In this document: in pieces, positions 7,912-62,228 of the stretch | Layout of the letters: each line of letters begins with the position of its first letter | Numbering within the stretch: the first letter of the stretch is position 1 | Source of the DNA: an uncultured Dehalococcoidaceae bacterium | GTDB lineage: Bacteria > Chloroflexota > Dehalococcoidia > Dehalococcoidales > RBG-16-60-22 | Direction: 5' to 3' | DNA: 64,000 nt | Assembly (NCBI GenBank): GCA_964462865.1 | Contig: CAYWZO010000001.1 | Span: 17,309 to 81,308, forward strand | Made by a program: the position numbers and the translations under genes | Notes under the pieces: generated by a model | Databases searched by the model: none | The model's input: the letters and a program-made list of their open reading frames with translations, nothing else | Told to the model about the DNA's origin: nothing

Positions 7912-8343
7912 ATGACCGACCGTGAATTATCGACAGAAGAACTGGAAGAAGGCTCCGAACTTCACCTTGACTTCGATAAGGTATCGAAAGTAGCGGCAGA
8001 GGTCGCCGGTGTCATGCCCGCCGCCGTCCAGAACGTGGATACCAAAGAGGTCATTCTGGTTGCCTACGTGAATAAGGCAGCCTTCCAGAAAAGTATCGAG
8101 ACCGGCATCGCTACCTTCTGGAGTACTTCGCGTAACGAACTCTGGGTAAAGGGCGCTACCTCGGGTAATGCCTTTGAACTGGTCGAGGTAAGGGTCAACG
8201 ACGAGCAGAACGCACTGGTATATATCGTCCGACCGAAAGGCGAAGGTATCTGTCACACCCGTAACTCAAAAGGTCAAGCCCGCAACTGTTTTTACCGCAG
8301 GTTAAATACTGATACCGGTACGCTGGAAAACCTCGACCCCTAG
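7912..8343 (+). CDS. HisI-like protein (PR-AMP cyclohydrolase fold), divergent
   Basis: ILVAYVNKAAFQKSIETGIATFWSTSRNELWVKGATSGNAFELVEVRVNDEQNALVYIVRPKGEGICHT...NCFYR aligns to the HisI core. The usual DCDxD box reads NDEQN and KGETSGH reads KGATSGN. Confidence 0.6.
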   Translation: MTDRELSTEELEEGSELHLDFDKVSKVAAEVAGVMPAAVQNVDTKEVILVAYVNKAAFQKSIETGIATFWSTSRNELWVKGATSGNAFELVEVRVNDEQNALVYIVRPKGEGICHTRNSKGQARNCFYRRLNTDTGTLENLDP

Positions 8344-8719
8344 TTCCACGCTTTCAGGCTACGGAAGAACCTGTCCGGATTTTTACCAGAGAGCTCTATT
8401 AGCCTTCGGAGGCGACTCAGGTCATATTCTCCCTTCAACAATCCTTGATATCATCGAATCAATGATTTTGTGGGGAGGACAAAATGGTTCTATGCTAAGT
8501 ACTTATCTCTCTCAAAATATTCATTATTTATCTTTTTTTTACTTTTTTTGAACATTCTTTATCATGCATATACTATTTTCATGCTATATTGAATTTGACC
8601 GTCAGAACGAGCAGCCACGCAGCCTGGAGGAAATAACTTAATGAGATTTTCCCTTATTAAGTTAAAGTACTCTTCAGTAAAAACGGTTAAAACTTAGGTT
8701 TGGCAGATTATTAGCTAAT

Positions 8720-10735
8720 ATGGGTGAACAGAAGAAAAAAAACGTATTTCCTGAAGAGAAATTTAGCAAAATATTTGACGAATACCGTGACAGGATAGAC
8801 CAGATTGTCCGGAAATCCTCAAATAATTTCGTTGAAAACGAAACGTTAACTGTTGTTACGACTGAGGATGTCCCTGCTGAACCAGGCACAGAGGTCCGGG
8901 GGGCCCAGGAGAATACCGAAAATCAGCCCGGGATGGATAAGCAACCATCCAGAATAAAACTGCCTGATACTAAAAAATCCGCTAAGAAAATCAGCGAGAC
9001 CGAACCTAAAGCTAAAAACATCATGTTAAAACAATCAATCAACTATACGGATATCACCAGGAGAATGAATAAAAAAAGATTGGGCGACCTCCTGATAGAA
9101 AACAAGATAATTACCCAAGCCCAGTTACAAAAAGCCCTTGAAGTGCAGAGCCAGGAAAGTGGCAGGTTAGGTGAAATCCTTATCAAGCAGGGGCTTATAA
9201 AATATGATACCCTGCTGGAATTTCTTAGTAAGCAACTGGAAATACCCATAGTAAATTTACAGGGCCGCATCATCAAGCAAGAAGTGCTGGAACGGGTCCC
9301 GGAGCACATAGCCCGAGGGCGTAACATTATTCCCGTGGAAATCGTTGATGATAAATTGGCCATCGTCATGGGATATCCCGAGGACATCATCACCATCGAT
9401 GATATTCAACTGATAACGGGTATGAAAATATGTATCGCGCTGGGTAACCCGGCCGATATAGAAGCCGCCATCGATTTCAACTACGAATCAAGCCGAAAAC
9501 TAGATATGGAAATAAACGAGGCCGAGGGTACAGCGAAGGATGAAGAAGAGGAAATTCAGGACAATATCGATTTTTCGCCAGCGGCCCAGAACCTCAATAA
9601 AATAATCAATCAGGCCGTACACGATGGCGCCTCGGACATACATATAGAACCTTATAAAAAGCGGCTACGTATACGCTTACGAATCGACGGCGTATTGCAG
9701 GATAAATATTCGCTGCCGGTCTCCGCTAATGATGTCATCGTAAGCAGAATAAAAATACTTGGAAAAATGAATATCGCGGAACACAGGCGCCCGCAGGACG
9801 GTCAATTCACAATTAAGTCAGGTCATAAATATATTGATATCCGGACCGCCACCGTAGGTACGGCCAACGGGGAAAGGGCCACCCTGCGTATTCTGGATAA
9901 GTCCCTGACCCTGATTAACCTGGATAAGCTCGGCTTCTTACCCGATACCCTGGAACAGTTAAAAAATATGCTGAAAAACACCTTCGGCATGGTCCTCGTG
10001 GGCGGCCCGACCGGGTCCGGTAAGACCACCACTTTATATTCCATGATAAACAATCTGGACCGCCACGAACTCAATATCATGACCATTGAGGACCCGATTG
10101 AGTACAGTTTTACAGATATCACTCAAATGCAGGTCAATGAGAAAGCGGGTATCAATTTTTCAAGCTGTTTGAAGGCATCGTTACGCCATGACCCCGATGT
10201 CCTCCTGATAGGTGAGATACGTGACCCGGATACGGCTAAAATAGCCGTTCAGGCGGCGCTGACCGGCCACCTGGTACTTGCCTCCATCCATGCCAATGAT
10301 GTTTCCAGCATGCTTTTCCGGTTGGTTCATCTCGGCATAGAGCCATATCTAATTTCTTCAACACTTATCGGCCTGCTGGCGCAACGCCTGGTCCGCTGTG
10401 TTTGTTCCTATTGTGCTGAAGAGACGGCCCCGTCGGCGGAGGAGGTCAAAGCCTTCAAGGAACTCACGGGAGAGACACTGACCGCCGTGCATACCGGCAA
10501 AGGCTGCGGTATTTGCTCCAACACCGGCCATCACGGTCGGACGGGGATATTCGAGCTGATGGCCATGAATGACACTATCAGAAGCAAACTGATTGCCGGC
10601 GCCAGCGCCTCGGAAATCCGGCACGAGGCGATCAATCAGGGTATGGTAACGATAAGCCAGTCAGGCATGACCAAAGTCAAGCTGGGTCTATCTTCGACCA
10701 AAGACGTACTGCGTTCGATAAACGCGCTGGGATAA
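8720..10735 (+). CDS. GspE/PilB/MshE-family secretion/pilus ATPase with N-terminal MshEN domain; start codon uncertain
   Basis: Walker A GGPTGSGKTTT, Asp/His boxes (LLIGEIRD, LVLASIHAN), C-terminal Cys cluster (CSYC...GCGICSNTG), and two tandem RLGxx(L/I)(L/I)xxG(L/I)(L/I)xxxxLxxxLxxQ-type motifs. The first ~115 aa are Lys-rich and low-complexity. Alternative starts are M102 and M116 (nt 9065). Confidence 0.85.
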   Translation: MGEQKKKNVFPEEKFSKIFDEYRDRIDQIVRKSSNNFVENETLTVVTTEDVPAEPGTEVRGAQENTENQPGMDKQPSRIKLPDTKKSAKKISETEPKAKNIMLKQSINYTDITRRMNKKRLGDLLIENKIITQAQLQKALEVQSQESGRLGEILIKQGLIKYDTLLEFLSKQLEIPIVNLQGRIIKQEVLERVPEHIARGRNIIPVEIVDDKLAIVMGYPEDIITIDDIQLITGMKICIALGNPADIEAAIDFNYESSRKLDMEINEAEGTAKDEEEEIQDNIDFSPAAQNLNKIINQAVHDGASDIHIEPYKKRLRIRLRIDGVLQDKYSLPVSANDVIVSRIKILGKMNIAEHRRPQDGQFTIKSGHKYIDIRTATVGTANGERATLRILDKSLTLINLDKLGFLPDTLEQLKNMLKNTFGMVLVGGPTGSGKTTTLYSMINNLDRHELNIMTIEDPIEYSFTDITQMQVNEKAGINFSSCLKASLRHDPDVLLIGEIRDPDTAKIAVQAALTGHLVLASIHANDVSSMLFRLVHLGIEPYLISSTLIGLLAQRLVRCVCSYCAEETAPSAEEVKAFKELTGETLTAVHTGKGCGICSNTGHHGRTGIFELMAMNDTIRSKLIAGASASEIRHEAINQGMVTISQSGMTKVKLGLSSTKDVLRSINALG

Positions 10736-10971
10736 CCGCCCCCGAGAAATGCTCCCCTTCCAATCAGTGTTTTCACTGCCACGATATCTTTATATCCCAC
10801 CGACCAATTTCCCTGACACTCCTTTTTTACAGGGGGATAACAGGGAAGATTCATCTCATTCACGCGTGCATCAGGCGCGCAGGATTATCACGATATCCTG
10901 TTTGACAAAGCCGTGCCCATCGCCTACATTTAATATATCGACACCGATGCGTTCAAGGAGGGCTATCGAAA

Positions 10972-23853: not shown

Positions 23854-23988
23854 AATAAAAAACCAGAAGCTGAAAAGGGACGGCTTCCGGTCTTAACTTC
23901 ACTTCCCTACGCTCGCATTACCGAGTTCAGGTTCAAAGGGTGTGTCCCGATAAAATCGGGGCTCTCAGCCTTCCAGCTCCCCTAGTGG
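23854..23988 (-). promoter_or_regulatory. TPP (THI-box) riboswitch with terminator expression platform
   Basis: The minus strand reads CCACUAGGGGAGCUGGAAGGCUGAGAGCCCCGAUUUUAUCGGGACACACCCUUUGAACCUGAACUCGGUAAUGCGAGCGUAGGGAAGUG. It contains the CUGAGA, ACCUGA and GGUAAUGC..GCGUAGGGAA consensus blocks. It is followed by the hairpin ACCGGAAGC...GCUUCUGGU plus UUUUUUAUU (23854-23891). Confidence 0.88.
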
Positions 23989-24154
23989 CAATATTCAGTT
24001 TGACTATATTCTAGCCCATCGGCAGCCCGGGTTTCAAGTTACCCGTACCCGCGGCCGTTTTCAACACCTTTGACCGCCGGCTAGCCTGCGGCTTATAATT
24101 CACCTCGGAGTGAGGTAAGTCTTTGACGCCAAAACATCGCCGGGGGTCCGACAC

Positions 24155-31606: not shown

Positions 31607-31890
31607 TGGAAAAAGACCTGTCCAGCCAGACCATTGAGCTCAAGAAAGAGAAAGCGCCCTCCGGAAAGGAGGCCATCCTCAAGATACTCTCCCGGGCGGC
31701 GGATGACCATAAGTTCCTGGCGCGTATGGCCGAGGACCCGGCTAAAGTGCTGAAGGAGTATGACCTGACCGCCGAAGAAAAAGCCGCCCTGATATCGGCA
31801 GACCTGCGCCGGATAGAGTCATGGGTTGGTAAGCTGGACAAAAGACTGGGTACCTGGATATGGTGCCGCCTCCAGCAGGAGAAATGGTAA
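31477..31890 (+). CDS. Hypothetical protein with C-terminal 'KIESWVGKLD...QEKW' module (paralogue of the FdhA tail)
   Basis: A GAAGGAGG SD lies 6-7 nt before ATG 31477; a second equivalent start is ATG 31552. The C-terminal 74 aa align gap-free with the last 74 aa of the FDH catalytic subunit. Confidence 0.7.
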   Translation: MDRESNNNILSLSTVVNQRNLKEASMEKEHEEDFLSISTVLNELEKDLSSQTIELKKEKAPSGKEAILKILSRAADDHKFLARMAEDPAKVLKEYDLTAEEKAALISADLRRIESWVGKLDKRLGTWIWCRLQQEKW

Positions 31891-31907
31891 TTTTAGCGAG
31901 GTCTGGA

Positions 31908-32459
31908 ATGAGTACAATAGCAGCGAAGCAAAGTACCGCAACGACCGGGCAGGATGAAAAAACCATCGCTTCCAAGGTGGACGAAGTCCTGGGAAAATTT
32001 ACCGGCGAGAAGGCCAATCTGATCCCCATTTTACAGCAGGTACAGCAGGTCCTGGGCTACCTGCCGGAAGAGGCTATGAGCCGCATCGCCCGGTTCGTGG
32101 ACGTCCCGGAATGCAGTGTCTTCGGCGTGGCCACCTTCTACGCCCAGTTCCAGCTCTTCCCCAGGGGACGCAACCTCGTCCGGGTATGTCGGGGCACCGG
32201 CTGCTATGTCAAGGGGGCACCGCGCCTGATTGATGAACTGGAGAAACTGCTGGGCATCAAAGAAGGCGAGACGACGCCGGATATGGAGTACACCCTGGAA
32301 ACAGTGGCCTGCTTCGGTTCCTGCGCGCTGGCGCCGGTGATGGTGGTCAACGACAGGGTGTACGGCCGGGTGACGCCGGACAAGGTGAAAGAGATACTGG
32401 GACGGAAGGCCTCCGGTCCAGTCCCGGCGCAGCCTGTAGAGAGCAGCTCCGGTCAGTAA
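31908..32459 (+). CDS. NuoE/HndA-like [2Fe-2S] subunit of NAD(P)-linked formate dehydrogenase
   Basis: LIPILQQVQQVLGYLP and the Cys pattern VCRGTGCYVKG...TLETVACFGSCALAPVMVVND. I place the start at ATG 31908. Confidence 0.88.
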   Translation: MSTIAAKQSTATTGQDEKTIASKVDEVLGKFTGEKANLIPILQQVQQVLGYLPEEAMSRIARFVDVPECSVFGVATFYAQFQLFPRGRNLVRVCRGTGCYVKGAPRLIDELEKLLGIKEGETTPDMEYTLETVACFGSCALAPVMVVNDRVYGRVTPDKVKEILGRKASGPVPAQPVESSSGQ

Positions 32460-32474
32460 GTTCAGGGGGAAACG

Positions 32475-34382
32475 ATGAATTACGAAGAAATTAAAAAGCG
32501 GGCCGCCTCACAATGGAAGGAAATGCAAAAAAGTCTGAAACCCCGGATTTTAGTGGGCACCGGGACCTGCGGCCTGGCCGCCGGAGCCGCTGCCGTACTG
32601 GAGACCCTCCGCCAGGAACTCGCCGAACACAGCCTGGAGGCGGACATCATCCAGGTGGGCTGCATTGGCCTGTGCTACGCCGAGCCCCTGATGGAGGTGG
32701 CTAAACCCGGCCAGCCAAGCGTCTTCTACGGCAACCTCACGCCGGCGCTGGTGACCGAGATTGTACGTGACTATCTCACGGGGGACAATGCCCGGCCGGA
32801 CCTTGCCCTGGGCACCCGGGGCGAAGGCAGCATCGACGGCATCCCCAATCTTTTCGACCTGCCGGTGCTCAAGCCCCAGAGGCGCATCGCCCTGCGTAAC
32901 TGCGGCAACATCGACCCCGCGGACATCAACCACTACCTGGCTAACGAAGGTTACGACGGATTATATAAAACCCTGAAGATGAAGCCCCAGGAAGTCATTA
33001 ACGATATTCAAAAGTCCGGGCTGCGCGGCCGCGGCGGCGCCGGCTTTCCCACGGGGATGAAATGGCAGTTCTGCCATGACGCCCCCGGTTCTCAAAAATA
33101 CATCATCTGCAATGCCGATGAAGGCGACCCCGGGGCCTTCATGGACCGGGCAGTGCTGGAGGGAGACCCCCACGCCGTGCTGGAAGGGATGCTCATCGGC
33201 GCGTATGCCATCGGCGCTTCCGAGGGATATATCTATATCCGGGCCGAGTACCCGCTAGCCATCGAGCGCCTGAAGGTGTCGATAACGCAGATGGAGAAAG
33301 ACGGCTTGCTCGGCGATAATATCATGGGTTCCGGCTTCAATTTCCATATCAAGATAAAGGAAGGCGCCGGAGCCTTTGTCTGTGGTGAGGAGACCGCGAT
33401 GATGGCCTCGATAGAAGGCAGCCGCGGCATGCCCCGTCCCCGTCCCCCTTTCCCTGCCAACTCGGGGCTCTGGGGCAAACCTACCAATATTAATAACGTC
33501 GAGACCTGGGCAAATGTCTCCGCCATCATGCAGAAAGGGGCGGACTGGTACGCCGGCTTCGGCACGGAAAAGAGCCGGGGCACCAAGACCTTCGCCCTGG
33601 TAGGCAAGGTGGTGCGGACCGGGCTCATCGAGGTGCCCATGGGCATTACATTACGCGAGATAATTTACGGTATCGGGGGCGGCATCGCCGAAGGTAAACA
33701 GTTCAAGGCCGTCCAGACAGGGGGTCCCTCGGGCGGCTGCCTGCCGGCCAGCTTCCTCGATTCGCCGGTGGACTTCGAATCGCTGGCGGCCGCCGGCTCC
33801 ATCATTGGGTCGGGTGGCATGGTGGTCATGGACGAGGACAACTGCATGGTGGACGTGGCCCGGTATTTCCTGACCTTCACCCAGCTCGAATCGTGCGGCA
33901 AATGCATCCCGTGCCGCTGGGGCACCAGGCAGATGCTGGACATCCTCCAGGACATCGTCAGCAGCCAGGGCCGGCCGGGAGACATCGATTTGCTCCTGGA
34001 GCTCGGCGACGCCATTAAAAACGGCTCGCTCTGCGCCCTGGGCGGCACGGCCCCCAACCCGGTATTGACCACCATCCGCTACTTCCGTGACGAGTACGAA
34101 GCCCATATCAATGAAAAACGCTGTCCGGCGCTGTCCTGCAAGGCACTTACCACTTACTACATCGATGCTGAAAAATGCCAGGGCTGCGGTATCTGCGCCC
34201 GCGCCTGCCCCGCCGGAGCGATTAATGGCGGTAAAAGGATGGTGCACGTTATTGACCAGGCGAAGTGCATCAAGTGCGGTAGTTGCCGGGAAGCGTGCCC
34301 GGCCAAGTTCGGTGCCGTGGTCAAGACGTCCGGCGGGACTATCGAGGCCCCCGCCGAGCCGGTGCCGGTAGGCGAGGCGTAA
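32475..34382 (+). CDS. NuoF/HndC-like FMN- and NAD(P)H-binding Fe-S subunit
   Basis: GLRGRGGAGFPTGMKW, YIICNADEGDPGAF, ESCGKCIPCR and a C-terminal 2x[4Fe-4S] motif (CQGCGICARACP, CIKCGSCREACP). Confidence 0.92.
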   Translation: MNYEEIKKRAASQWKEMQKSLKPRILVGTGTCGLAAGAAAVLETLRQELAEHSLEADIIQVGCIGLCYAEPLMEVAKPGQPSVFYGNLTPALVTEIVRDYLTGDNARPDLALGTRGEGSIDGIPNLFDLPVLKPQRRIALRNCGNIDPADINHYLANEGYDGLYKTLKMKPQEVINDIQKSGLRGRGGAGFPTGMKWQFCHDAPGSQKYIICNADEGDPGAFMDRAVLEGDPHAVLEGMLIGAYAIGASEGYIYIRAEYPLAIERLKVSITQMEKDGLLGDNIMGSGFNFHIKIKEGAGAFVCGEETAMMASIEGSRGMPRPRPPFPANSGLWGKPTNINNVETWANVSAIMQKGADWYAGFGTEKSRGTKTFALVGKVVRTGLIEVPMGITLREIIYGIGGGIAEGKQFKAVQTGGPSGGCLPASFLDSPVDFESLAAAGSIIGSGGMVVMDEDNCMVDVARYFLTFTQLESCGKCIPCRWGTRQMLDILQDIVSSQGRPGDIDLLLELGDAIKNGSLCALGGTAPNPVLTTIRYFRDEYEAHINEKRCPALSCKALTTYYIDAEKCQGCGICARACPAGAINGGKRMVHVIDQAKCIKCGSCREACPAKFGAVVKTSGGTIEAPAEPVPVGEA

Positions 34383-34422: not shown

Positions 34423-37386
34423 ATGACAATAACTGGCCCGACTGTAGCGGGAGAGCGAAAAACGGGGACAGTATCCCTGATAATAGATGGCGTAAAAGTT
34501 GAGGTGACGGAAGGGACGACGGTGCTGGAAGCGGCCCGACAGGCCGGAATTTACATCCCCACGCTGTGCTATGACCCCGACCTTAAGCCGTACGGGGCCT
34601 GCCGCCTGTGTATCGTAGAAATCGAAAAGATGCGCGGCCTGCCCACCTCCTGTACTACGGCGGCGGCCGAAGGCATGGTCGTCCATACCGAATCGAAGGC
34701 GGTCAACCAGTCGCGCCGCATCACCATGGAACTCATCATGGCCAACCATCACGGCGATTGCCTCACCTGTGCCAAGAACCAGAACTGCGAGCTGCAGACG
34801 GTGGCGCGCTACCTGGGCATCGAGCAGGAGCACTTCGACCGGATGCGGAAGAGCCAGGTGGTGCATCCCGTCGATGATAGCCATCCCGCTTACATCCGCG
34901 ATATGAACAAGTGCATCCTTTGCGGACGCTGCTGGCGCGCCTGCCACGAGATTGCCGGCGTCGAAGCAATCGACGTCGCCTTCCGGGGCAACGCGGCCAC
35001 AGTCAGCACCTTCGGCAATAAACCCATCGCGGAGTCCATCTGCGAGGCCTGCGGCGAGTGCCTGGAGCACTGTCCCACCGGCGCCCTGACACCGAAAAAT
35101 ATCCGGCAGGCGGCGCGTGAAGTGAAAACAATCTGCCCGTACTGCGGCGTCGGCTGCTCCATTTTCCTGGGCGTCCGCGGCAATGAAATCGTCAGCGTCC
35201 GCGGCGATAAAGACAGCCCGGTCAACCGGGGCGGCCTCTGCGTGAAAGGGCGTTTCGGCTTTGACTTCGTCAACCACCCCGACCGTCTGACCAAACCGTT
35301 GATACGGCGGGAGGGCTGGAGCAAGGCCATCGAGGTCAACGGCAATTTCAAAGACATTTTCCGCGAGGCCACCTGGGACGAGGCCCTGGACCTGGTGGCT
35401 GATAGATTGTCCCTGATAAAAGCCGAGCACGGCCCGGACAGCCTCGGCGTTTTAAGCTCCGCCAAGTTCACCAACGAGGAGAACTACCTGGTGCAAAAGT
35501 TCACCCGGGCGGTCATCGGCACCAATAACGTCGACCATTGCGCCCGTCTCTGACATGCTTCTACAGTGGCCGGTGCGGCCGCAGCCTTCGGCGACGGTGC
35601 TATGAGCAACTCCATCGCTGATTTTCAGAAGGCCGACCTTCTCTTCGTCATCGGCTCCAATACCACCGAGTGCCATCCCATTATCGGGCGCTACGTCCGC
35701 CAGGCAGCGCGCTCGGGCACGGCCAAACTCATCGTGGCCGACCCCCGTACCATCCAGCTGGCCAAGAGGGCAGCCATTCACCTGCGCCAGAAACCGGGCA
35801 CCGACGTAGCGCTGCTCAACGCCATGATGAACGTCATCCTCACCGAGGGGCTTGAGGACAAGGAATTTGTCACGGAGCGTACCGAAGGCTTCGAGGAGAT
35901 GGCTGCGACCGTGAAAAAATACACTCCGGAGATGGCCGAGGAAATTACCGGCGTTTCCCGGGCCGATATCATCCGGGCGGCGCGGCTCTTCGCCAATGCG
36001 GAGCGAGCCTGCGTGCTCTACGGCATGGGCATCACCCAGCACACCACCGGCACGGACAATGTCAAAAGCGTCGCCAACCTGCTGATGTTGACCGGTAACA
36101 TCGGCCGCGAGGGCACCGGCTTCAGTCCGCTAAGGGGCCAGAACAACGTCCAGGGGGCCTGCGATATAGGCGCCCTGCCCAATGTCCTGCCCGGCTACCA
36201 GCCGGTGACCAACCCGGAGGCCAGGCAGAAGTTCGAGGCGGCCTGGAACTGTAAAATCAAGGACAAACCGGGCGTGCCCGTGACCGAAATGGTTGAAGCA
36301 GCCATTCGCAAAGACATCCGGGCGATGTACATCGTCGGTGAGAACCCGGCACTGACCGAGCCTTACACCACCCATGCCAGAAAAGCGCTGCAAAAGCTGG
36401 ACTTCCTAGTGGTGCAGGATATCTTCCCCACCGAGACGGCGGTGCTGGCCGACGTGATTTTACCGGCGGCGGCCTTCGCCGAGAAGGACGGCACCTATAC
36501 CAGCACGGAAAGAAGGGTGCAGAAAGTGTGCCAGGCCGTTAGCCCGCCCGGAGAAGCTAAACCGGACTGGGAGATTATCTCGCTGCTGGCGAACAAAATG
36601 GGATACCCCTTCCCTTACCAGACCATCGAGGAAATCAACCTCGAGATGACATCACTCACCCCCATTTACGGTGGTATGCAATTTGACCGGCTGGACAATT
36701 ACGGGCTGCAGTGGCCATGCCGCGATAGGAACGACCCCGGTACCCCAACCCTCCACGCGGGCAAGTTCACCCGCGGGCTGGGCAAGTTCCACGCCGTGGA
36801 GTACCGGCCGCCGGCGGAGTCCGTCTCGCCGGACTATCCGCTTACCCTTACCACCGGCCGGATACTGGAACAATACCACACCGGTACCATGAGCCGCCGC
36901 ACCAAAGTGCTGAACGAGTTGCATCCCAAGGGGGGGATAGATATCCATCCCGAGGATGCCATCAAGCTCGGCATCACGGACGGAGATCTGGTAAGCGTGG
37001 CCTCGGAGCGGGGAAAGATTGAAGCGACAGCCAACATAACCGATACAACTGCGCCCGGACTGGCTTTTATGGCCTTCCACTGGAAGGAATCGCCGGCCAA
37101 CATGCTCACCAACCCGGCGCTCGACCCGGTAGCCAAGATACCGGAGTTCAAGGTATCGGCCGTTAAAGCAGTGCTGGCGGTGCTGGACCGGGCCACCCAG
37201 GACAATGCCTTCCTGGCCCGGCTGGCCGAGAACCCCGCCGAGGCACTGAAGGAATATGACCTGACCCCCAAGGAGAAGATAGCCATCGCCAGCGGCGATA
37301 TTCGTAAAATCGAGTCGTGGGTGGGCAAGCTGGACGAACGCCTCAAGAAATGGCTGGTGGCCCGGCTGGCCCAGGAGAAATGGTAG
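34423..37386 (+). CDS. fdhA: Formate dehydrogenase catalytic subunit, selenocysteine-containing (in-frame TGA at 35551-35553), with a ~70-aa C-terminal extension
   Basis: The two listed ORFs (34423..35553 and 35566..37386) are in the same frame. They join as [30 protein letters not shown], the canonical Sec/Cys active-site context. The N-terminus has 2Fe-2S and 4Fe-4S NuoG-like domains, followed by the CPYCGVGC molybdopterin domain. Confidence 0.9.
35551..35585 (+). promoter_or_regulatory. UGA-Sec codon plus candidate bacterial SECIS hairpin
   Basis: A GC-rich stem-loop gtggccg-gtg-cggccgc (35566-35582) starts 13 nt after the TGA. Confidence 0.5.
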
Positions 37387-37502: not shown

Positions 37503-38726
37503 ATGGAAGAGATAACCGACAGGCAGGAGTTTACAGAGAAAGACATTCTTTCATCGGGAGTGACGCGGCGGCTCCTGGAAGCCAAGGCGCCCGGGGGACT
37601 ACGCAGCCCCCACGCCTGGATAATCGCGGGCATTTTTATCGTCTTTACCTACATTTACTACGGTGTCCTGAAGTCCTACCATGATATCTATGTCATCATC
37701 TTCTTCTACCCGATGATTTCAGCCGCAATCGTCTACCGCCTCAAGGGAGTGCTCGTCAGCGGTATTGCCTTCCTCGGCGTCATCATTCCCCAGGCCCTTC
37801 TCTTCGGCCACGACCTGGTATCACTGATGAGAACGCTCATCTTCGCCCTTTTTGCCTTCCTCATCAGCGGCCTGGGGGCGACGCTGCTGAACTACATCGA
37901 GCACCAGGTAGAAGCCTATAAAGAGATTGTTTCGCTTAACGAAGAGCTGAATAAATACATCGAGCGCCTGCAAAAGACACAGCAGCAGTTGATTCAGGCG
38001 GCCAAGCTCGGCTCCATCGGCGAGCTTTCAGCGGGGGTGGCCCACGAGCTAAACAATCCACTGGCCGGCGTGCTGGTCTACACCAGGCTGATTAAAGACA
38101 AGCTGGCGAGGGACGCCTATAATAAAGAGCAACTGACGAGCAACCTGGATAAAATAGAATCGGCCATAGAGTACTGTACCGGGATTACTCGCGGTCTGCT
38201 CGATTTTGCCCGGCAGTCACCGCCGCTGCTGCGGCCGGTCACGGTGAGCCGTGCCGTGGATAAGGCCCTGTCTCTGGTGGGGCACCAGGCCAAGATAAAG
38301 CGGATTGAGGTCGTCAGGGAGGAAGCCCCGGCGCTGCCGCTGGTCGTGGCGGACTTCAACCAGCTGGTGCAGGTCATCATCAACCTGGTAGTCAACAGCA
38401 TCGATGCCATGCAGGAAGGCTGCCAGGTGACTATCGGCACCTCTGGGGATAACGGGTGGGTCAGGATACGTGTCAGTGATACCGGCTGCGGCATTACCCC
38501 GGAAAACATGGAAAAGCTGTTCACCCCGTTTTTCACCACGAAGGAAGAGGTCAAAGGCGTGGGGCTGGGGCTGGCGGTATCCTATGGCATCATCGAGCGC
38601 CACGGAGGCAGGATTGAGGTTCAGAGCGAGGCAGGCAAGGGGAGCACCTTTACCGTTGTTTTACCGGCCTGCCAGAGCGAGGAGCCGCCCAAGCCAACCG
38701 AAAACCAGACTAACACTAGTCGTTAA
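37503..38726 (+). CDS. Orphan membrane sensor histidine kinase (HisKA/HATPase_c)
   Basis: Multi-TM N-terminus, coiled-coil linker, H-box GELSAGVAHELNNPLAG, N-box LVVNSIDAM, and G-boxes SDTGCGI and GVGLGLAVS. No cognate regulator is adjacent. Confidence 0.88.
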   Translation: MEEITDRQEFTEKDILSSGVTRRLLEAKAPGGLRSPHAWIIAGIFIVFTYIYYGVLKSYHDIYVIIFFYPMISAAIVYRLKGVLVSGIAFLGVIIPQALLFGHDLVSLMRTLIFALFAFLISGLGATLLNYIEHQVEAYKEIVSLNEELNKYIERLQKTQQQLIQAAKLGSIGELSAGVAHELNNPLAGVLVYTRLIKDKLARDAYNKEQLTSNLDKIESAIEYCTGITRGLLDFARQSPPLLRPVTVSRAVDKALSLVGHQAKIKRIEVVREEAPALPLVVADFNQLVQVIINLVVNSIDAMQEGCQVTIGTSGDNGWVRIRVSDTGCGITPENMEKLFTPFFTTKEEVKGVGLGLAVSYGIIERHGGRIEVQSEAGKGSTFTVVLPACQSEEPPKPTENQTNTSR

Positions 38727-40191
38727 GCGGCCAGGGTAAGGTCACGGTCAGCTCGGTCCCCTCGCCCGGCGCCGATTTTATTTGAAGACTGCCGTTGAGG
38801 AGACTGGCCCGTTCGTACATACCCATAATACCGAGTCGGCCTGCACTGACGCCTTCCCCCATTCTTTCTTTCACCACGAACCCCCGGCCATTATCGGCCA
38901 CGGTCATGGTAATACAGTTGTTACTGCCTTCGACGGTAATGGTCGCCCGGGAGGCCTGGGCATGTTTCCTGATGTTGTTCAGGGCTTCCTGGGCGATTCT
39001 GAAGAGGACTATCTGCGTTTCCGGCGTCAGCGCCCGGTCAAAGCCGGCCACCTTGACCTGTGTTTCAATACCCTGGTCGTTTTCCAGTTCCTCGGCGATC
39101 CACTCCAGGGCAGCCACCAGGCCAAGGTCATCGATGATGCGCGGCCTCAAGCCCTGGGCAGTGGCACGCAGGGCCTCCAGGGACTCCACGGCCTGGCCGC
39201 GGAGCCCGGCGATATTCTCTTTCAGGGACGATAGCTTGATACGCTGACCGGAGGACAGGTTGTCCAGCTTCTGAATGAGAATGAGTATGTTCGGAGAAAC
39301 ATCATCATGGAGGTCGCGGGCGATGCGTTTCCGCTCTTCCTCCTGGGCCATGGTGATCTGCTTGATATAGGCACGCATGTTTTCCTGCTGCTGCTTTTCC
39401 TGGGTGACGTCCCGGGCGACATGCTCGAAGCCCGTTATCCTGCCGCCGGAAATAATAGCGTTGGTGGTCATTTTGACCGTCCTGACCACGCCGGGGCTAA
39501 TATAGAATTGCTGCTCGTAAGGCTGCTCGAAGTCCTCCCCGTCCACCAGCTTGTTCCTGACCTCCCTGGCCAGTACCAGCGATTCCTCGCTCATAAATTT
39601 ACCAAGGTGGGTTCCTCTCACCTCGGCTATCTTAAGCCCGGTCAATTTCTCAAACGCCCGGTTGCCATCGACCAGGTAGCCATTGACATCCTGCACCCAG
39701 ATGGCATCACTGGCGTTTTCAAACAGATAGCGGTACTTCTGTTCGGAAATAGTCATGCCGCGCTCGGATTCTTCAAGACGGGACACGAGCTGCCGGTACA
39801 GGTCGCTCTCTTTTCTTTTCGTCTCGAACCACAGGTTTACCAGCACCCCAAGAATAACCACCGCACCGCTCTGCAAGAAGGCTTCCACGCGGTATTCAGA
39901 CATGAAATAAACCCGGGGCAGGATGATAATCAGCGATATCACCAGGGCGGCCATCCCGGCCCTCAAGCCGAAAAACATACCGGCGTAGGTTATCGGCACC
40001 AGGAAAAGGGTCCGCTCCACGGCAAAATGCGTCAACCCGAGAAAGGAAAGAAGGGAGGGCGATTCGACCGGCAGAAATTGCTGCGGATAATGGAAGATGG
40101 TGCCGATGATGAAAAAGGCCAACAATATCCAGAAATGGGGATTGGAGATGGTGATGGAAGCCTGTTTCAACGTACGAAAATAGTTGGCCAC
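38716..40191 (-). CDS. Membrane sensor histidine kinase (PAS, HisKA_3, HATPase)
   Basis: TM N-terminus, PAS (SEQKYRYLFENASDAIWVQD), H-box ERKRIARDLHDDVSPNI and C-terminal GEGTELTVTLP. GTG start. Confidence 0.88.
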   Translation of the reverse strand: MANYFRTLKQASITISNPHFWILLAFFIIGTIFHYPQQFLPVESPSLLSFLGLTHFAVERTLFLVPITYAGMFFGLRAGMAALVISLIIILPRVYFMSEYRVEAFLQSGAVVILGVLVNLWFETKRKESDLYRQLVSRLEESERGMTISEQKYRYLFENASDAIWVQDVNGYLVDGNRAFEKLTGLKIAEVRGTHLGKFMSEESLVLAREVRNKLVDGEDFEQPYEQQFYISPGVVRTVKMTTNAIISGGRITGFEHVARDVTQEKQQQENMRAYIKQITMAQEEERKRIARDLHDDVSPNILILIQKLDNLSSGQRIKLSSLKENIAGLRGQAVESLEALRATAQGLRPRIIDDLGLVAALEWIAEELENDQGIETQVKVAGFDRALTPETQIVLFRIAQEALNNIRKHAQASRATITVEGSNNCITMTVADNGRGFVVKERMGEGVSAGRLGIMGMYERASLLNGSLQIKSAPGEGTELTVTLPWPLND

Positions 40192-40227: not shown

Positions 40228-40890
40228 TTACTGTATATCGTTAAGGTCGATATAGCCCTGCTTTAGTCCCTTGATGATGGCATCGGTGCGGCTGCTGCAG
40301 CCGAGTTTATTGAAAATATTGGTCATATGGGCTTTGACGGTGCGCAGGCTGATAAACAGTTTTTCAGACAGTTCCTTGTTGCTCAACCCCCGTGCCGCCC
40401 ATTTGAGAATTTCCATCTCCCTTGAGGTCAACTGCCCGCTCGTTTCACGCTCGTCCGGGCTTTTCGACAGGCTGGCCAGGCGCTGTACCAGCTTGCGGGT
40501 GACCTCGGAGTCGAGCACTGACTCGCCGGAACGCACCGCGCGTATCGCCCTGACAACATCATTGCCGGGGGAGTTCTTCAACAGATAGCCGCAGGCCCCG
40601 GCTTCCAGCAGGCCGATAATATAGCGGATATCACTGTAGGCCGTTAAAATCAGCAAAGCGGTGGCCGGGCTGACCTGCTTGATCTGCTTGGTGGCCTCGA
40701 CGCCGTTAAGTTTGGGCATCACGATGTCCATGATAATGATATCGGGCTTTATCTTGGCGGCCAGTTGGACGGCTGCTTCGCCATCGGCGGCCTCACCCAC
40801 CATCTCGAAATCCTTCTCCTTCTCGAGGAGATTGCGCATGCCCTCCCGAAGCATGGCATGGTCATCCGCGATCATAATCCTTGTTTTCAT
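40228..40890 (-). CDS. NarL/LuxR-family response regulator
   Basis: RIMIADDH, IIIMDIVMPKLNG, LILTAYS, GYLLKN and LTSREMEILKWAARGLSNKELSEKLFISLRTVKAHMTNIFNKL. Confidence 0.9.
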   Translation of the reverse strand: MKTRIMIADDHAMLREGMRNLLEKEKDFEMVGEAADGEAAVQLAAKIKPDIIIMDIVMPKLNGVEATKQIKQVSPATALLILTAYSDIRYIIGLLEAGACGYLLKNSPGNDVVRAIRAVRSGESVLDSEVTRKLVQRLASLSKSPDERETSGQLTSREMEILKWAARGLSNKELSEKLFISLRTVKAHMTNIFNKLGCSSRTDAIIKGLKQGYIDLNDIQ

Positions 40891-41212
40891 ATTGCTCCTA
40901 GCGGTTGATTTGAATGCCTATCTAAAGTGTTTCTCTACCATTCTAAAACGTTAACAGGAAAATGGCAATCGTTCGGGCTATATCCGGCAATCCACGACCT
41001 GTGTCCGGGACACAATTGTTCAAGATTGAGAAAAAAGATACAAATTGGAGACTGGATTAACATAAATAAGCATCCGGTTCTAGTACTTTGGGGCAATCAG
41101 AAATATGACTTACTGACTGCCAGGATGAGCCGTGGGGTCGGTTAAAGACGATGGTAAGAGGTGTTAACATAAATTGGTTAGGTGGTGCGGAAGGTTGGTA
41201 AGGTTGACCGGA

Positions 41213-41482
41213 ATGAGAGAAAGAAAAAACACCAATCATGATGCCAGGCTGGAAAAACGGAATGCCATCCTGGCAGCCCTGACTAAAGCCAGGGGTGAAA
41301 CGCCTGCCTCCGAGGTTACGGCAGAACCGGATGACGGGCATAACAGCTATTACACGATGAGCAAGGACGAAGTAGACGCCCTGGTTAAAGGTAATATGGA
41401 AAAAATAGAGAGCTGGGTCAACAACCTGGACAGGCGTCACGCGACCTGGCTTTTACGCTGGCTCATTAAAGAAAGCGGGTGA
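41213..41482 (+). CDS. Small hypothetical protein with the third copy of the 'KIESWV..LD' module
   Basis: YTMSKDEVDALVKGNMEKIESWVNNLDRRHATWLLRWLIKESG aligns with YDLTAEEKAALISADLRRIESWVGKLDKRLGTWIWCRLQQEKW. I prefer ATG 41213 to the listed TTG 41174. Confidence 0.55.
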   Translation: MRERKNTNHDARLEKRNAILAALTKARGETPASEVTAEPDDGHNSYYTMSKDEVDALVKGNMEKIESWVNNLDRRHATWLLRWLIKESG

Positions 41483-41542: not shown

Positions 41543-43954
41543 ATGAAAGAAAGTAAAAAGATATTAATTGCAGACGACGAAAGTATTATACGCGACTCCC
41601 TGACGGACTGGCTGACCGACCGCGGTTATAAGGTGGTCACCGCCGAGGATGGCACCAAGACACTGAAAATGTTGACGCAGGAGAACAACTTCGGGGTGGT
41701 TGTCCTGGACGTCCGCATGCCGGGCAAAGACGGTTTCGCGGTTCTGGAAGAAGCCAAAAGACGCCATCCCGGCCTGAAATATGTATTCATCAGCGGGTAC
41801 CCCTCGGTAGATGCCATGACGCGGGGGATAAGGCTGGGGGCCGCCGGTTTCCTGACCAAGCCTTTCGACCCGGAAGAGTTGGAAAAGCTCATCCAGCACG
41901 CCCTGTACGGAGACGAAAAGACCGCCGCGGCAGCCACCGCCGAGTCCGCCCGGGCGGAAGAAGATATCCTGGGGCAGATATCCGGCAAAGAAATAGCGTC
42001 CATGATGGCGGAGAACCGCGTTTTCCAGCCCTCGAAAGAGTTCGCGGAGACGGCCGCGCTGAAGAGCCTTGACGAGTATAAAGCGTTATATAACTGGTCC
42101 ATCAAGAACCCGGAGGAATTCTGGGGCCAGATGGCCAACCAGCTTGACTGGTACAAGAAATGGGACAGGTTCCTGGAGTATGACTTTAAAAATAAGCCCG
42201 AGGTCAGGTACTTTATTGGCGGCAAGATTAATGTCAGCCAGAACTGCCTGGACCGTCACCTCGGTACCTGGCGCAAGAACAAGGCCGCCCTCATCTGGCA
42301 GGGCGAACCCGACGAAGATTCCAGGATTTTTACCTACCAGCAGCTGCACCGCGAGGTGTGCAAGTTCGCCAACGTTTTAAAGAAGCTCGGCGTGAAAAAA
42401 GGCGACACCGTTTCCCTGTATCTGCCGATGATTCCCGAGCTGGCCGTCGCCATGCTGGCCTGCGCCCGCATCGGCGCGGTGCACAGCGTGGTCTTCGGCG
42501 GTTTCAGCGCCGAGGCCCTGCGTGACCGCATCCAGGACGGCCGTTCGAAGATACTCGTCACGTCCAACGGCTACTGGCGCAGCGGCAAACAGATTAACAG
42601 CAAAGCCAACGCCGATACCGCCCTCAAGGACTGCCCCGACGTTGCCAACGTCGTCGTGGTCAAGAGGCTGGCCGGACTTAATGTCTCCATGCAGACCGGC
42701 CGCGACCAGTGGTGGCACGAGCTCATGAACGCCGCCGATATTTCCGACGAATGCGAGCCGGAACCGATGGACGCCGATGCCCCGCTCTTCATCCTTTATA
42801 CCAGCGGCAGCACCGGCAAGCCCAAGGGCGTGGTCCACACGCAGGCGGGCTATCTCCTGCACTGCTACCAGAGCATGAAATGGATATTCGATATTAAAGA
42901 AGAGGACACCTACTGGTGCACCGCCGATGTGGGCTGGGTCACCGGCCACAGCTACATCGTCTACGGCCCGCTGGCCATCGGCGCCGCCAGCCTCATGTTC
43001 GAGAGTGCCCCCAACTACCCCCAGCCCGACCGCGGCTGGCAGATTGTGGAGAAGTACGGCGTCAACGTCTTCTACACCGCCCCCACGCTTATCCGGGCCC
43101 TGATGCGGGAAGGTGAGGAGTGGCCCAACCAGCACGACCTTTCCAGCCTCCGTCTCCTCGGCAGCGTCGGCGAGCCCATCAACCCCGAGGCCTGGATGTG
43201 GTTCCACCGCGTTATCGGCAAGGAAAAGTGCCCCATCGTGGACACGTGGTGGCAGACGGAGACTGGCGGTATCCTGATTACGCCACTGCCCGGCGCTATT
43301 CCCACCAAGCCCGGCTCGGCCACGGTGCCCTTCCCCGGCGTCGAGCCGGTAGTCCTGCGGGAAAACGGGACCGAGGCCGGCGTCAACGAGGGCGGCTGGC
43401 TCTGCATTAAGAAACCGTGGCCCGGCATGATGCGCACCATCTATCGGGACCCCGAGAGATTCAAACAGACCTACTTCAGCAAGTTCCCCGGCTATTACTG
43501 CACGGGTGACGGCGCCCGCAAGGACGCGGACGGTTACTACTGGCTTATGGGCCGCATTGACGACGTGATTAACGTCTCCGGTCACCGCATCGGTACCGCC
43601 GAGGTGGAAAGCAGCCTGGTAGCCCACCCCAAAGTGGCCGAGGCGGCGGTCGTCGGTATGCCGCATTCTCTCAAAGGCCAGGGAATCTACGCTTACGTCA
43701 CCGTCAAGACCGGTATCAAGCCGGATGCGGACCTGGAGAAAGAGCTGAAAAACCACGTCCGCCAGATGATAGGCCCTATCGCCACGCCGGATGTCATCCA
43801 GTTCGCCGACGGCCTGCCCAAGACGCGTTCCGGTAAAATCATGCGCCGGATACTGGTCAAGATTGCCGCCGGCACGACCGATGACCTGGGCGATACCTCG
43901 ACCCTGGCTGACCCGTCGGTGGTGACGACGCTGGTTGCCGGTAAAAAGAAGTAA
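41543..43954 (+). CDS. acs: Response-regulator receiver domain fused to acetyl-CoA synthetase (AMP-forming)
   Basis: Residues 5-120 form a complete REC domain ([33 protein letters not shown]). After an Ala/Glu-rich linker comes a full Acs ([76 protein letters not shown]). Confidence 0.9.
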
Positions 43955-62152: not shown

Positions 62153-62228
62153 TGGTGGGCGGTACAGGACTTGAACCTGTGACCTCCTGCGTGTGAAGCA
62201 GGCGCTCTAACCACTGAGCTAACCGCCC
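62153..62228 (-). tRNA. tRNA-Val (anticodon CAC), CCA encoded
   Basis: The minus strand reads GGGCGGTTAGCTCAGTGGTTAGAGCGCCTGCTTCACACGCAGGAGGTCACAGGTTCAAGTCCTGTACCGCCCACCA. It folds by hand into a 7/4/5/5-bp cloverleaf with anticodon loop TTCACAC. Confidence 0.93.

Follow-up and report, generated by a model that had tools for sequence, protein, structure and literature searches.

Acetyl-CoA synthetase (Acs) is a textbook example of an enzyme controlled via lysine acetylation; the Dehalococcoidia bring acetate into their biomass through it, and assimilation by this route costs two ATP equivalents per acetate. Many isolated receiver (REC) domains autophosphorylate with acetyl phosphate, an intermediate of the alternative acetate pathway, and to our knowledge hardly any of the response regulators studied has an enzyme of central metabolism for its output. 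Two-component systems and acetate activation are known to meet in CrbS/CrbR, which governs acetate assimilation through Acs (PMC5436829), and E. coli Acs can use acetate as donor for the in vitro acetylation of CheY at Lys 91, 92, 109, 119, 122, and 126, as related in a passage of PMC2883070 that cites Barak et al. 1992 and 2004. Moreover, REC domains fused to standard metabolic enzymes are a recognised class of narrow, lineage-specific spread (PMC5847659), with REC-glycosyltransferase, REC-thioredoxin reductase, and REC-pyruvate phosphate dikinase as examples; neither Acs nor any AMP-binding output is named among the examples in a section of that census or in the other papers found.

The locus considered here lies in the window, i.e., the whole 64-kb stretch of DNA that was analysed, and encodes a REC domain joined to Acs, a combination that was first noticed in the DNA letters and was then not known to have been characterised (hereafter, the original prediction). 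A literature search for such a REC-Acs fusion found no paper, and the Acs version of a REC-enzyme fusion does appear to be uncharacterised. The regulatory logic had also been presented as different in kind, and here the conceptual novelty is smaller than was implied, because fusions of REC with metabolic enzymes already form a recognised class, as the census of PMC5847659 indicates. The features of the locus are collected in Table 1.

Table 1. Features of the REC-Acs locus, with positions counted from the first letter of the window.
Feature	Position	Strand	Basis
Candidate cognate histidine kinase, 407 aa	37503..38726	+	Pfam HisKA (H181) + HATPase_c
PAS-HisKA_3 histidine kinase	38716..40191	-	Pfam PAS + HisKA_3 + HATPase_c
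NarL/LuxR-type response regulator	40228..40890	-	Pfam REC + GerE; divergent from the X / REC-Acs unit
Small ORF, conserved, immediately preceding REC-Acs	41174..41482	+	Conservation in L001-L020
"X" helical domain, ~75 aa, in the small upstream ORF	41258..41452	+	Homology to L039 proteins
REC-Acs fusion gene, 803 aa	41543..43954	+	One ORF; Pfam REC + ACAS_N + AMP-binding + AMP-binding_C
REC domain, residues 7-117	41561..41893	+	Pfam Response_reg E 4e-26; AF2 fold
Codon of acceptor D56	41708..41710	+	
Flexible inter-domain segment, residues ~124-160	41912..42022	+	AF2 pLDDT 27-44
AMP-forming acetyl-CoA synthetase, residues 152-801	41996..43945	+	NF001208 and TIGR02188 above cutoffs
Codon of catalytic Lys K765	43835..43837	+	

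The two domains are encoded by a single unbroken ORF, whose ATG is preceded at ~8 nt by a good match to a Shine-Dalgarno sequence, AAAGGAGAAGG, and Pfam finds along it Response_reg, ACAS_N (residues 179-235), AMP-binding (residues 245-633, E 1e-89), and AMP-binding_C (residues 687-765), in this order, so that the single-protein fusion of the original prediction holds. An identical protein occurs a second time on an independent JGI contig. It is practically inconceivable that the fusion is an artefact, i.e., a frameshift, a mis-assembly, or two neighbouring genes read as one: nothing in favour of such a reading was found, and against it stand the same continuous ORF, with no frameshift or stop between the domains, in >100 independent assemblies (JGI, ENA, NCBI, Logan), the purifying selection acting on both halves, and the linker length kept across the homologs. 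Frameshift and mis-assembly were rejected on the strength of those assemblies. Regarding the surroundings of the gene, an Rfam scan found no riboswitch or other RNA element nearby, a promoter/terminator scan gave promoter-like matches no higher than background, and no second acs copy was found within the window.

The REC half scores 91.7 bits against Response_reg (PF00072), for which the cutoff is 30.2, and in the AF2 model of the full protein it folds as (beta-alpha)5 with a pLDDT of 85-93. All the elements on which the original prediction relied to call this domain complete are there, namely the acidic pocket in ADDES (D11 and D12, followed by E13), the acceptor D56, S84 in FISGY, and K106 in TKPF, to which the switch aromatic F103 is added. 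These residues are ~92-100% conserved across the fused homologs: D11 is kept in 97, D12 in 99, and both D56 and K106 in 98 of the 106 sequences, position 84 is S or T in all 106, and position 103 is Y or F in 42/42 non-redundant fused sequences. With a complete catalytic set the domain is, as judged by its residues, of the phosphorylatable type and falls outside the definition of a pseudo-receiver, and its dN/dS is ~0.08-0.17. An exhaustive search with REC only, followed by Pfam annotation of the best matches, returned mostly multi-REC proteins and hybrid kinases, and among these best matches there was no clue to function and no other enzyme fusion; where a relative with a single REC did come close, it was a stand-alone REC or one of a tandem.

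The Acs half passes the NCBIfam AcsA equivalog model TIGR02188 with 1001 bits (cutoff 725) and NF001208 with 1043 bits (cutoff 657), and remains below the cutoffs of the propionate, acetoacetate, and other ligase models, in agreement with the full-length AMP-forming Acs originally proposed. In the PDB sequence search it matches the S. enterica Acs structure 2p2f with 818 bits over residues 174-801; this search returned no solved structure with REC on Acs, and the AcsA structures 8RPK/8RPL from a "Chloroflexota bacterium" are unfused. The core motifs of the ANL superfamily, i.e., the P-loop-like motif, the WWQTETG segment, and the A10 motif with the catalytic Lys, are all present and essentially invariant in the 106 fused homologs, and W570 probably corresponds to the Trp of the acetate pocket in the S. 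enterica enzyme. On the evidence of the equivalog model and of these motifs, the Acs half is predicted to be catalytically competent. K765, cited at the outset as the acetylatable Lys, is indeed retained; its retention says nothing about acetylation control, because this residue is catalytic and invariant in all the homologs.

The Ala/Glu-rich linker reported between the two halves is present as well, even if the linker proper covers only residues ~123-140, while residues ~139-175 are the native N-terminal extension of Acs, found also in the unfused homologs. Its sequence is poorly conserved and its length is confined to a narrow range, with 35-46 residues between the KPF and SMM motifs. AF2 models both domains with confidence and the flexible stretch of ~35 residues between them with a pLDDT <45, and it does not place REC on the Acs body with confidence.

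Upstream of the fusion, the gene that the original prediction had pointed to at 37503 does encode a kinase, made of a compact N-terminal TM region (~4 TM helices), a coiled coil, HisKA, and HATPase_c, and the H, N, G1, F, and G2 boxes are conserved among its homologs along with the TM region. A homolog of this kinase lies 31-3124 bp from REC-Acs in 25 loci and in four gene arrangements, being placed upstream at ~2.75 kb, upstream at ~1.25 kb, immediately downstream in convergent orientation (31-72 bp), or immediately upstream and duplicated; at the 43 loci with unfused Acs, it was found in none. This genomic co-localisation suggests that the HisKA kinase is the candidate cognate kinase of REC-Acs, which is the only unpaired receiver nearby because the one other regulator in the vicinity, of NarL type, has a HisKA_3 kinase of its own. 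In locus L028, the same kinase type adjoins several other REC proteins, so Acs may not be its only or main target.

The PAS-HisKA_3 kinase is conserved together with the NarL gene in L001-L020 and is the expected partner of its product. The NarL-type regulator is probably the transcriptional regulator of the REC-Acs locus: it is 80-96% identical at its upstream position in the fused loci and ~50-69% identical at the same position of unfused acs loci. The small ORF that precedes REC-Acs is 46-68% identical in L001-L020 and has no Pfam match, and its X domain is homologous to the C-terminal domain of REC+X and FNT+X proteins in L039. As a separate observation, this ~75-aa domain recurs in several contexts, being borne by FdhA, an FNT channel, and a REC and also lying beside Acs; an apparent X-Acs fusion in L076 was rejected, the X and Acs matches being in different frames. 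A scan of the ten genes around the fusion turned up neither a GNAT nor a sirtuin.

Given the architecture, the intact catalytic residues in both halves, their conservation, and the kinase found beside the fusion, it is rather probable that REC-Acs is under direct two-component control at the protein level, with an architecture like that of CheB. Phosphotransfer from the kinase and an effect on Acs activity are what we infer from these observations. The membrane-embedded HisKA kinase would phosphorylate D56, and the S84/F103/K106 switch on the alpha4-beta5-alpha5 face would alter either the docking of REC on the Acs body or dimerisation, which would in turn change the activity of Acs following the CheB logic of REC, linker, and enzyme. 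Acetate assimilation could in this way be coupled within seconds to the membrane signal sensed by the kinase, plausibly the energy or redox state, and the divergent PAS-kinase/NarL pair would probably control transcription of the X / REC-Acs unit.

The phosphoryl donor might also be another. It is distinctly unlikely, in our opinion, that acetyl phosphate, rather than the kinase, is the main donor to REC, with the fusion acting as a self-contained feedback sensor from the acetyl-phosphate pool to acetate activation. The logic of such a sensor is attractive, since its ligand belongs to the alternative acetate pathway; the reaction is established for many isolated RECs, and the active site of this REC is intact. 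However, the linkage with the kinase is tight and specific (25 fused loci vs 0/43 unfused ones), and the loss of the acceptor Asp, discussed below, coincides with the absence of the kinase. Even less credit can be given to the reverse direction of information flow, in which REC is an intramolecular acetylation substrate, Acs is the input, and acetylated REC is the output. The precedent is the acetylation of CheY by E. coli Acs in vitro, mentioned in PMC2883070, and the fusion would render the same reaction intramolecular, but the lysine patch of CheY is not conserved here, with only K79 and the catalytic K106 being Lys in >90% of the sequences and K115 in 67%, and a CheY-type acetylation patch was rejected on these grounds. 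The linked kinase would also be left unexplained.

As for its spread, the REC-Acs architecture is common to >100 independent sequences, is carried by ~85 of the 120 top-ranking database clusters, and occurs in ~37 species-representative MAGs of the Dehalococcoidales. In a weakly resolved NJ tree of the Acs domains, unfused clades are nested within the fused clade, and REC would therefore be dispensable in some lineages; the internal branches are too short to choose between one fusion with later losses of REC and several fusions. L039 has a split form, in which this type of REC is encoded apart from Acs, itself unfused, within one locus. Moreover, the gene just before Acs encodes a stand-alone cNMP-binding protein, which has no GNAT domain, in 30/43 of the unfused loci and in 0/37 of the fused ones, so REC occupies a slot that is otherwise held by a small regulator.

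A subclade distant from the window protein (L031/L032/L033/L036/L037 and P0118) has turned its REC into a pseudo-receiver, with D56 replaced by S, D12 by A/V, and K106 by A/V/I. No kinase homolog was found at the five loci of this subclade with adequate flanks (0/5, the flanks extending ~1.7-8 kb to either side according to the contig), and since kinase absence and loss of the acceptor Asp are probably a single evolutionary event, the correlation counts as one observation in favour of control by the kinase and not as five. The pseudo-receivers are still under purifying selection (omega ~0.1-0.3), and REC therefore has some role that is independent of phosphorylation. This leads to the reading, which we consider unlikely, that REC is mainly structural and serves oligomerisation, docking, or localisation independently of phosphorylation. 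It would tether Acs to its partners, for instance the membrane kinase or small X-domain proteins, and phosphorylation would be secondary or irrelevant to catalysis. In addition to this subclade, the fusion of REC to the X domain in L039, the X ORF that immediately precedes REC-Acs in the window, and the lack of a fixed interface in the AF2 prediction are consistent with it. Conversely, the clade of the window protein retains all the catalytic residues together with the switch aromatic in 92-100% of its members, and the dedicated kinase has been retained through four rearrangements; these facts argue against a purely structural REC, as neither would be expected for such a domain.

Direct control by the kinase being the reading that we prefer, it may tentatively be extended to a "metabolic phosphorelay" peculiar to the Dehalococcoidales, a possible but doubtful scheme in which one type of membrane kinase would switch several core enzymes via paralogous fused receivers, with no need of transcription, and the X domain would be a docking module. 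The enzymes would be Acs and, in L028, may also include a [NiFe]-hydrogenase diaphorase-like subunit and a HycI-like maturation protease. If this were true, the oxidation of the electron donor (H2 or formate) would be coupled to carbon assimilation, and the X domain would assemble FdhA, the FNT channel, REC, and Acs components.

Direct control of REC-Acs would by itself mean that an attached receiver and a dedicated kinase give fast and reversible control of a central adenylating enzyme. Nature offers the comparisons, i.e., the kinase-less pseudo-receiver clade, the unfused Acs with its cNMP-binding protein, and the split REC of L039, so recombinant proteins are enough for a direct test of the hypothesis, an advantage given that these organisms are uncultured. 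The findings could be of use in understanding or engineering carbon flux in a group that is important for subsurface carbon cycling and is related to the organohalide-respiring strains of bioremediation.

Among the known systems, CheB is the closest in design: a REC with all its catalytic residues stands at the N-terminus, and a flexible, poorly conserved linker joins it to a C-terminal enzyme. All of this is one polypeptide, and a histidine kinase controls the enzyme activity post-translationally; it is this likeness that we propose for REC-Acs. The output of the latter differs in being an ANL-superfamily adenylating enzyme of ~650 aa with a mobile C-terminal subdomain of its own, and its candidate kinase is a membrane HisKA and not CheA. 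Since the output is AMP-binding/Acs and not a methylesterase, the likeness is an analogy of architecture and not family membership; in CheB the unphosphorylated REC occludes the active site until phosphorylation frees it, an autoinhibition that REC-Acs may share. With Galperin's class of enzymatic-output regulators, such as PleD/WspR (REC-GGDEF) and RpfG (REC-HD-GYP), REC-Acs shares the lineage-specific union of REC with a standard enzyme (PMC5847659), whereas most members that have been characterised synthesise or break down second messengers and do not act in central carbon metabolism.

The Pat/AcuA-CobB/AcuC systems, including the cAMP-dependent Pat of mycobacteria, have in common with REC-Acs that Acs is the post-translational target, K765 corresponding to K609 in S. 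enterica. Unlike in these systems, the proposed control element is here an attached phospho-acceptor domain with a kinase and not an acetyltransferase/deacetylase pair, and in the sister lineages the position of REC is taken by a stand-alone cNMP-binding protein with no GNAT domain. Finally, CrbS/CrbR provides the same link between a two-component system and acetate assimilation via Acs, but CrbR is a DNA-binding protein that acts on acs transcription, whereas the receiver is here inside the enzyme, and the transcriptional layer of the REC-Acs locus is probably supplied by the separate NarL-type regulator.

The REC-Acs gene is a single ORF of 803 aa, preceded by a good ribosome-binding site (AAAGGAGAAGG, ~8 nt 5' of the ATG), in which a receiver (REC) domain is joined to an acetyl-CoA synthetase (Acs). 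As the original prediction held, the latter is a full-length AMP-forming enzyme: ACAS_N, AMP-binding and AMP-binding_C are all found, residues 152-801 match the NCBIfam acetate--CoA ligase model at equivalog level (TIGR02188, 1001 bits; cutoff 725), and the NCBIfam models for propionate, acetoacetate, and other acyl-CoA ligases stay below their cutoffs. The REC is likewise complete, with D11-D12-E13, D56, S84 in FISGY, and K106 in TKPF. Regarding the lysine that had been called catalytic and acetylatable, K765 is present, but its presence is no evidence for acetylation control because it is the catalytic A10 lysine and invariant. Not all of the stretch between the two domains is the proposed Ala/Glu-rich linker: residues ~139-175 are an N-terminal extension that, in the alignment, also occurs in unfused relatives such as L038, so the piece added is the REC plus ~20 Ala/Glu-rich residues.

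Coordinates of the features discussed, in the window and in acs loci of other genomes (L numbers)
Feature	Location	Strand	Remarks
REC-Acs	window 41543..43954	+
Response_reg	REC-Acs residues 7-117		Pfam, E 4e-26
ACAS_N	REC-Acs residues 179-235		Pfam
AMP-binding	REC-Acs residues 245-633		Pfam
AMP-binding_C	REC-Acs residues 687-765		Pfam
HK_37503	window 37503..38726		HisKA/HATPase_c kinase, 407 aa
PAS-HisKA_3 kinase	window 38716..40191	-	expected partner of NarL/LuxR-type regulator
NarL/LuxR-type regulator	window 40228..40890	-	only other regulator nearby
FdhA	window 34423..37386	+	selenocysteine formate dehydrogenase; in-frame TGA 35551..35553, motif CARL-U-HAS
NuoE-like partner of FdhA	window 31860..32459
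NuoF-like partner of FdhA	window 32475..34382
X domain copies	window 31663..31887, 37165..37383, 41258..41452
X domain copies	L039 1752..1982, 3165..3389		also in many unfused loci
cNMP-binding gene, example	L039 3476..3991		among L039-L080
REC paralogs	L028 9..5137, 10452..10952
Acs in two pieces	L029 8493..10383
Pseudo-receiver REC	L031 about 8001..8351
TPP riboswitch	window 23887..23993	-	Rfam, 63.9 bits
tRNA gene	window 62156..62228	-	Rfam
Low-GC stretch	window 8001..10000		GC 0.445; overlaps 671-aa ORF 8720..10735

The fusion is real, conserved, and coherent. Its two domains are continuous in one ORF, and the same four Pfam domains recur in proteins of ~800 aa with 65-90% identity in ~85 of the best 120 database clusters, drawn from JGI, ENA, NCBI, and Logan assemblies; the named fused clusters among these 120 belong to Chloroflexota, Dehalococcoidia, or Dehalococcoidales, and databases label the proteins merely 'acetate--CoA ligase'. 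The exact window protein is present on an independent JGI contig. When one genome of each GTDB species was scanned, the REC-bearing form appeared at 37 loci (L001-L037). All of them come from MAGs of uncultured Dehalococcoidales or 'Dehalococcoidaceae', and identity in the REC region declines from 83% to 39%. Both halves are under purifying selection (dN/dS ~0.08-0.17 for REC and ~0.05-0.12 for Acs, with dS near saturation), which, together with the independent assemblies, refutes an assembly artefact with practical certainty.

In an NJ tree of Acs domains, two unfused clades (the P0074 group, n=8, and the L038 group, n=32) lie inside the fused clade and fused P0094, P0095, and P0106 among unfused proteins; this topology, whose internal branches are very short, would imply secondary REC loss and/or domain shuffling. 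Two further proteins with Acs domains, P0104 and P0116, have 1274 aa, ~2x the normal length; their Acs may be fused in tandem or to another enzyme.

Both active sites are intact. Across an alignment of 106 fused proteins the Acs motifs are essentially invariant, and the REC residues are conserved in 97 (D11), 99 (D12), 98 (D56), 106 (S/T84), 98 (K106), and 106 (P107) of them. Among the canonical sequences, with redundancy removed, position 103 holds the switch aromatic (CheY Y106 equivalent), Y or F in 42/42, the Y86-P87(-S-V) motif after beta4 is essentially invariant, and helix alpha1, the main kinase-docking surface in the REC family, is well conserved. Isolated degenerate RECs also occur: D56 is replaced by G in P0065 and P0066, and D11 by Y in P0067 and P0068. 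AlphaFold2, run on full REC-Acs with a 64-sequence alignment, modelled both the REC, as a (beta-alpha)5 fold (pLDDT 85-93), and the Acs core confidently, and residues 124-160 with low confidence (pLDDT 27-44); the linker is poorly kept in sequence (23-75% identity) and limited in length to 35-46 residues from KPF to SMM. The predicted picture is that of a tethered regulatory domain. No PDB entry holds the fusion, the best matches beginning at query residue ~150-174, and the published AcsA structures labelled 'Chloroflexota bacterium' (8RPK/8RPL) show an unfused enzyme of 657 aa.

The candidate input to this REC is HK_37503, a kinase whose N-terminal 135 residues are arranged as ~four TM helices joined by minimal loops, with no sensor domain recognised by Pfam; 23 homologs share the H, N, G1, F, and G2 boxes and also the TM bundle, with several of its His/Tyr/Pro positions. 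HisKA_3 kinases are the expected pairing for NarL/LuxR-type regulators, and the nearby regulator of this type has its own PAS-HisKA_3 kinase, which leaves HK_37503 and REC-Acs as two unpaired partners. Their genomic linkage is strong: a homolog of HK_37503 (48-84% identity) lies 31-3124 bp from REC-Acs in 25 loci, all with the canonical acceptor Asp, and near 0/43 unfused Acs genes. Four arrangements are seen, with the homolog ~2.75 kb upstream of REC-Acs on its strand, ~1.25-1.4 kb upstream, directly downstream and convergent at 31-72 bp (L021-L024), or directly upstream and tandemly duplicated (L028). Canonical fused loci without the kinase mostly reflect contig limits (two are 2-kb contigs and one begins inside REC). 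The only well-flanked one on the upstream side, L029, has no kinase in its ~8-kb upstream flank; its Acs is matched in two overlapping pieces in different frames, and the gene probably carries a frameshift or is a pseudogene.

Comparative evidence makes direct two-component control of Acs the favoured reading, and a reasonably probable one. One subclade (L031, L032, L033, L036, L037, and P0118) has a degenerate receiver, with D56 changed to S ('IISLE'), D12 to A/V, and K106 to A/V/I, and none of its five loci holds any kinase within the flanks, which extend ~1.7-8 kb to either side according to the contig; the neighbours in L031 are MarR, MMPL, NosD-like, and Mrp-like genes. Acceptor loss thus coincides with kinase absence, which is what input from the kinase to the REC would predict; a single evolutionary event probably underlies it, and the observation has the weight of one. 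Even so, the pseudo-receiver has been preserved (omega ~0.1-0.3), so REC must also have a phosphorylation-independent role, which is the main support for the view that it is a scaffold or docking domain regardless of phosphorylation. The associations of the X domain, a recurrent helical domain of ~75 aa, speak for the same view, but the catalytic set and the kinase are strictly retained in the window's clade, and we consider it unlikely.

Under two-component control, the membrane kinase would phosphorylate D56, the S84/F103/K106 switch would alter the alpha4-beta5-alpha5 face, and this would change Acs activity, either through the way REC docks on Acs or through dimerisation mediated by REC. 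The C-terminal subdomain of ANL enzymes must rotate widely between half-reactions (PMC11255334), and this rotation would be an obvious point at which a docked domain could hinder or promote the reaction. Sensing of acetyl phosphate by REC has an attractive logic and is compatible with kinase input, but leaves the kinase linkage unexplained and seems improbable; that Acs acetylates its own REC, for which CheY offers a precedent (PMC2883070), is more improbable still. As for the signal to the kinase, we conjecture energy or redox state, gating ATP-costly assimilation, because the sensor is made only of membrane helices and the loci hold a formate dehydrogenase or a [NiFe]-hydrogenase. The former is in the window, where two ORFs split by the in-frame TGA are one selenocysteine gene accompanied by NuoE/F-like subunits, and the latter is in L028.

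The X domain matched Pfam models only below threshold: PF14407 (Frankia_peptide), at E 1e-5 to 4e-7 and short of the gathering score, and LigA. Of the copies in the window, one is a tail at the C-terminal end of the catalytic subunit of formate dehydrogenase, one ends the 150-aa product of the first ORF in the NuoE/NuoF/FdhA operon, and one is a free-standing ORF upstream of REC-Acs; in L039 it ends an FNT channel and a REC protein. The domain may serve in docking or assembly. In L028, paralogs of the Acs REC (43-51% identity) are fused to other proteins: a [NiFe]-hydrogenase diaphorase-like subunit (REC + Fer4_22 + FAD_binding_6 + NAD_binding_1 + DHODB_Fe-S_bind, 799 aa in all) and a HycI-like maturation protease. 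The locus also has a stand-alone REC of 166 aa. All of these flank two tandem HK_37503-type kinases and REC-Acs, an arrangement found in one lineage only. A tentative idea is that several enzymes take part in a metabolic phosphorelay whose assembly relies on the X domain.

Where Acs is unfused, the acs loci of Dehalococcoidia repeatedly show the order NarL(-), X, cNMP-binding protein, Acs, X, FNT-channel+X. The cNMP-binding gene (171 aa, stand-alone, conserved, PF00027 E 4e-9) holds the position that REC has in fused loci, lying directly upstream of Acs in 30/43 unfused and 0/37 fused loci, and its product may be a cyclic-nucleotide-dependent Acs regulator. The FNT (formate/nitrite family) channel with X tail, often downstream of unfused Acs, may conduct acetate or formate. 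The divergent NarL-type regulator is conserved in fused and unfused loci alike and probably supplies transcriptional control. A split form exists in L039 (NarL(-), REC+X, FNT+X, cNMP-binding, unfused Acs), whose REC+X protein of 227 aa is 52% identical to the window REC and has the canonical Asp and the YPSV motif. Judging from these layouts, Acs in this lineage seems to be accompanied by a small regulatory module that can be exchanged, and the window's clade has fused the two-component version to the enzyme.

Elsewhere in the window, the TPP riboswitch and the tRNA were the only Rfam matches at gathering score, and the low-GC stretch (flanking windows ~0.57-0.60) may be foreign DNA.

By sequence, REC-Acs is a true member both of AcsA and of the phosphorylatable REC family. 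Acs is known to be regulated by transcription, e.g., through CrbS/R (PMC5436829), and by lysine acetylation (PMC11255334); a full-text literature search turned up no description of REC joined to Acs or to AMP-binding, in line with the original prediction, in which the fusion was not known to have been characterised. The principle is already known: REC domains on standard metabolic enzymes, each of narrow phyletic range, are a recognised class, for which a census gives REC-glycosyltransferase, REC-thioredoxin reductase, and REC-pyruvate phosphate dikinase as examples (PMC5847659). Given the specific enzyme, the controls that nature provides, and hints that phosphorelay at the enzyme level may reach further in the lineage, the fusion makes a good experimental target. 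In layout, REC-Acs resembles CheB, by analogy only, in having an N-terminal REC, a flexible linker, and a C-terminal enzyme.
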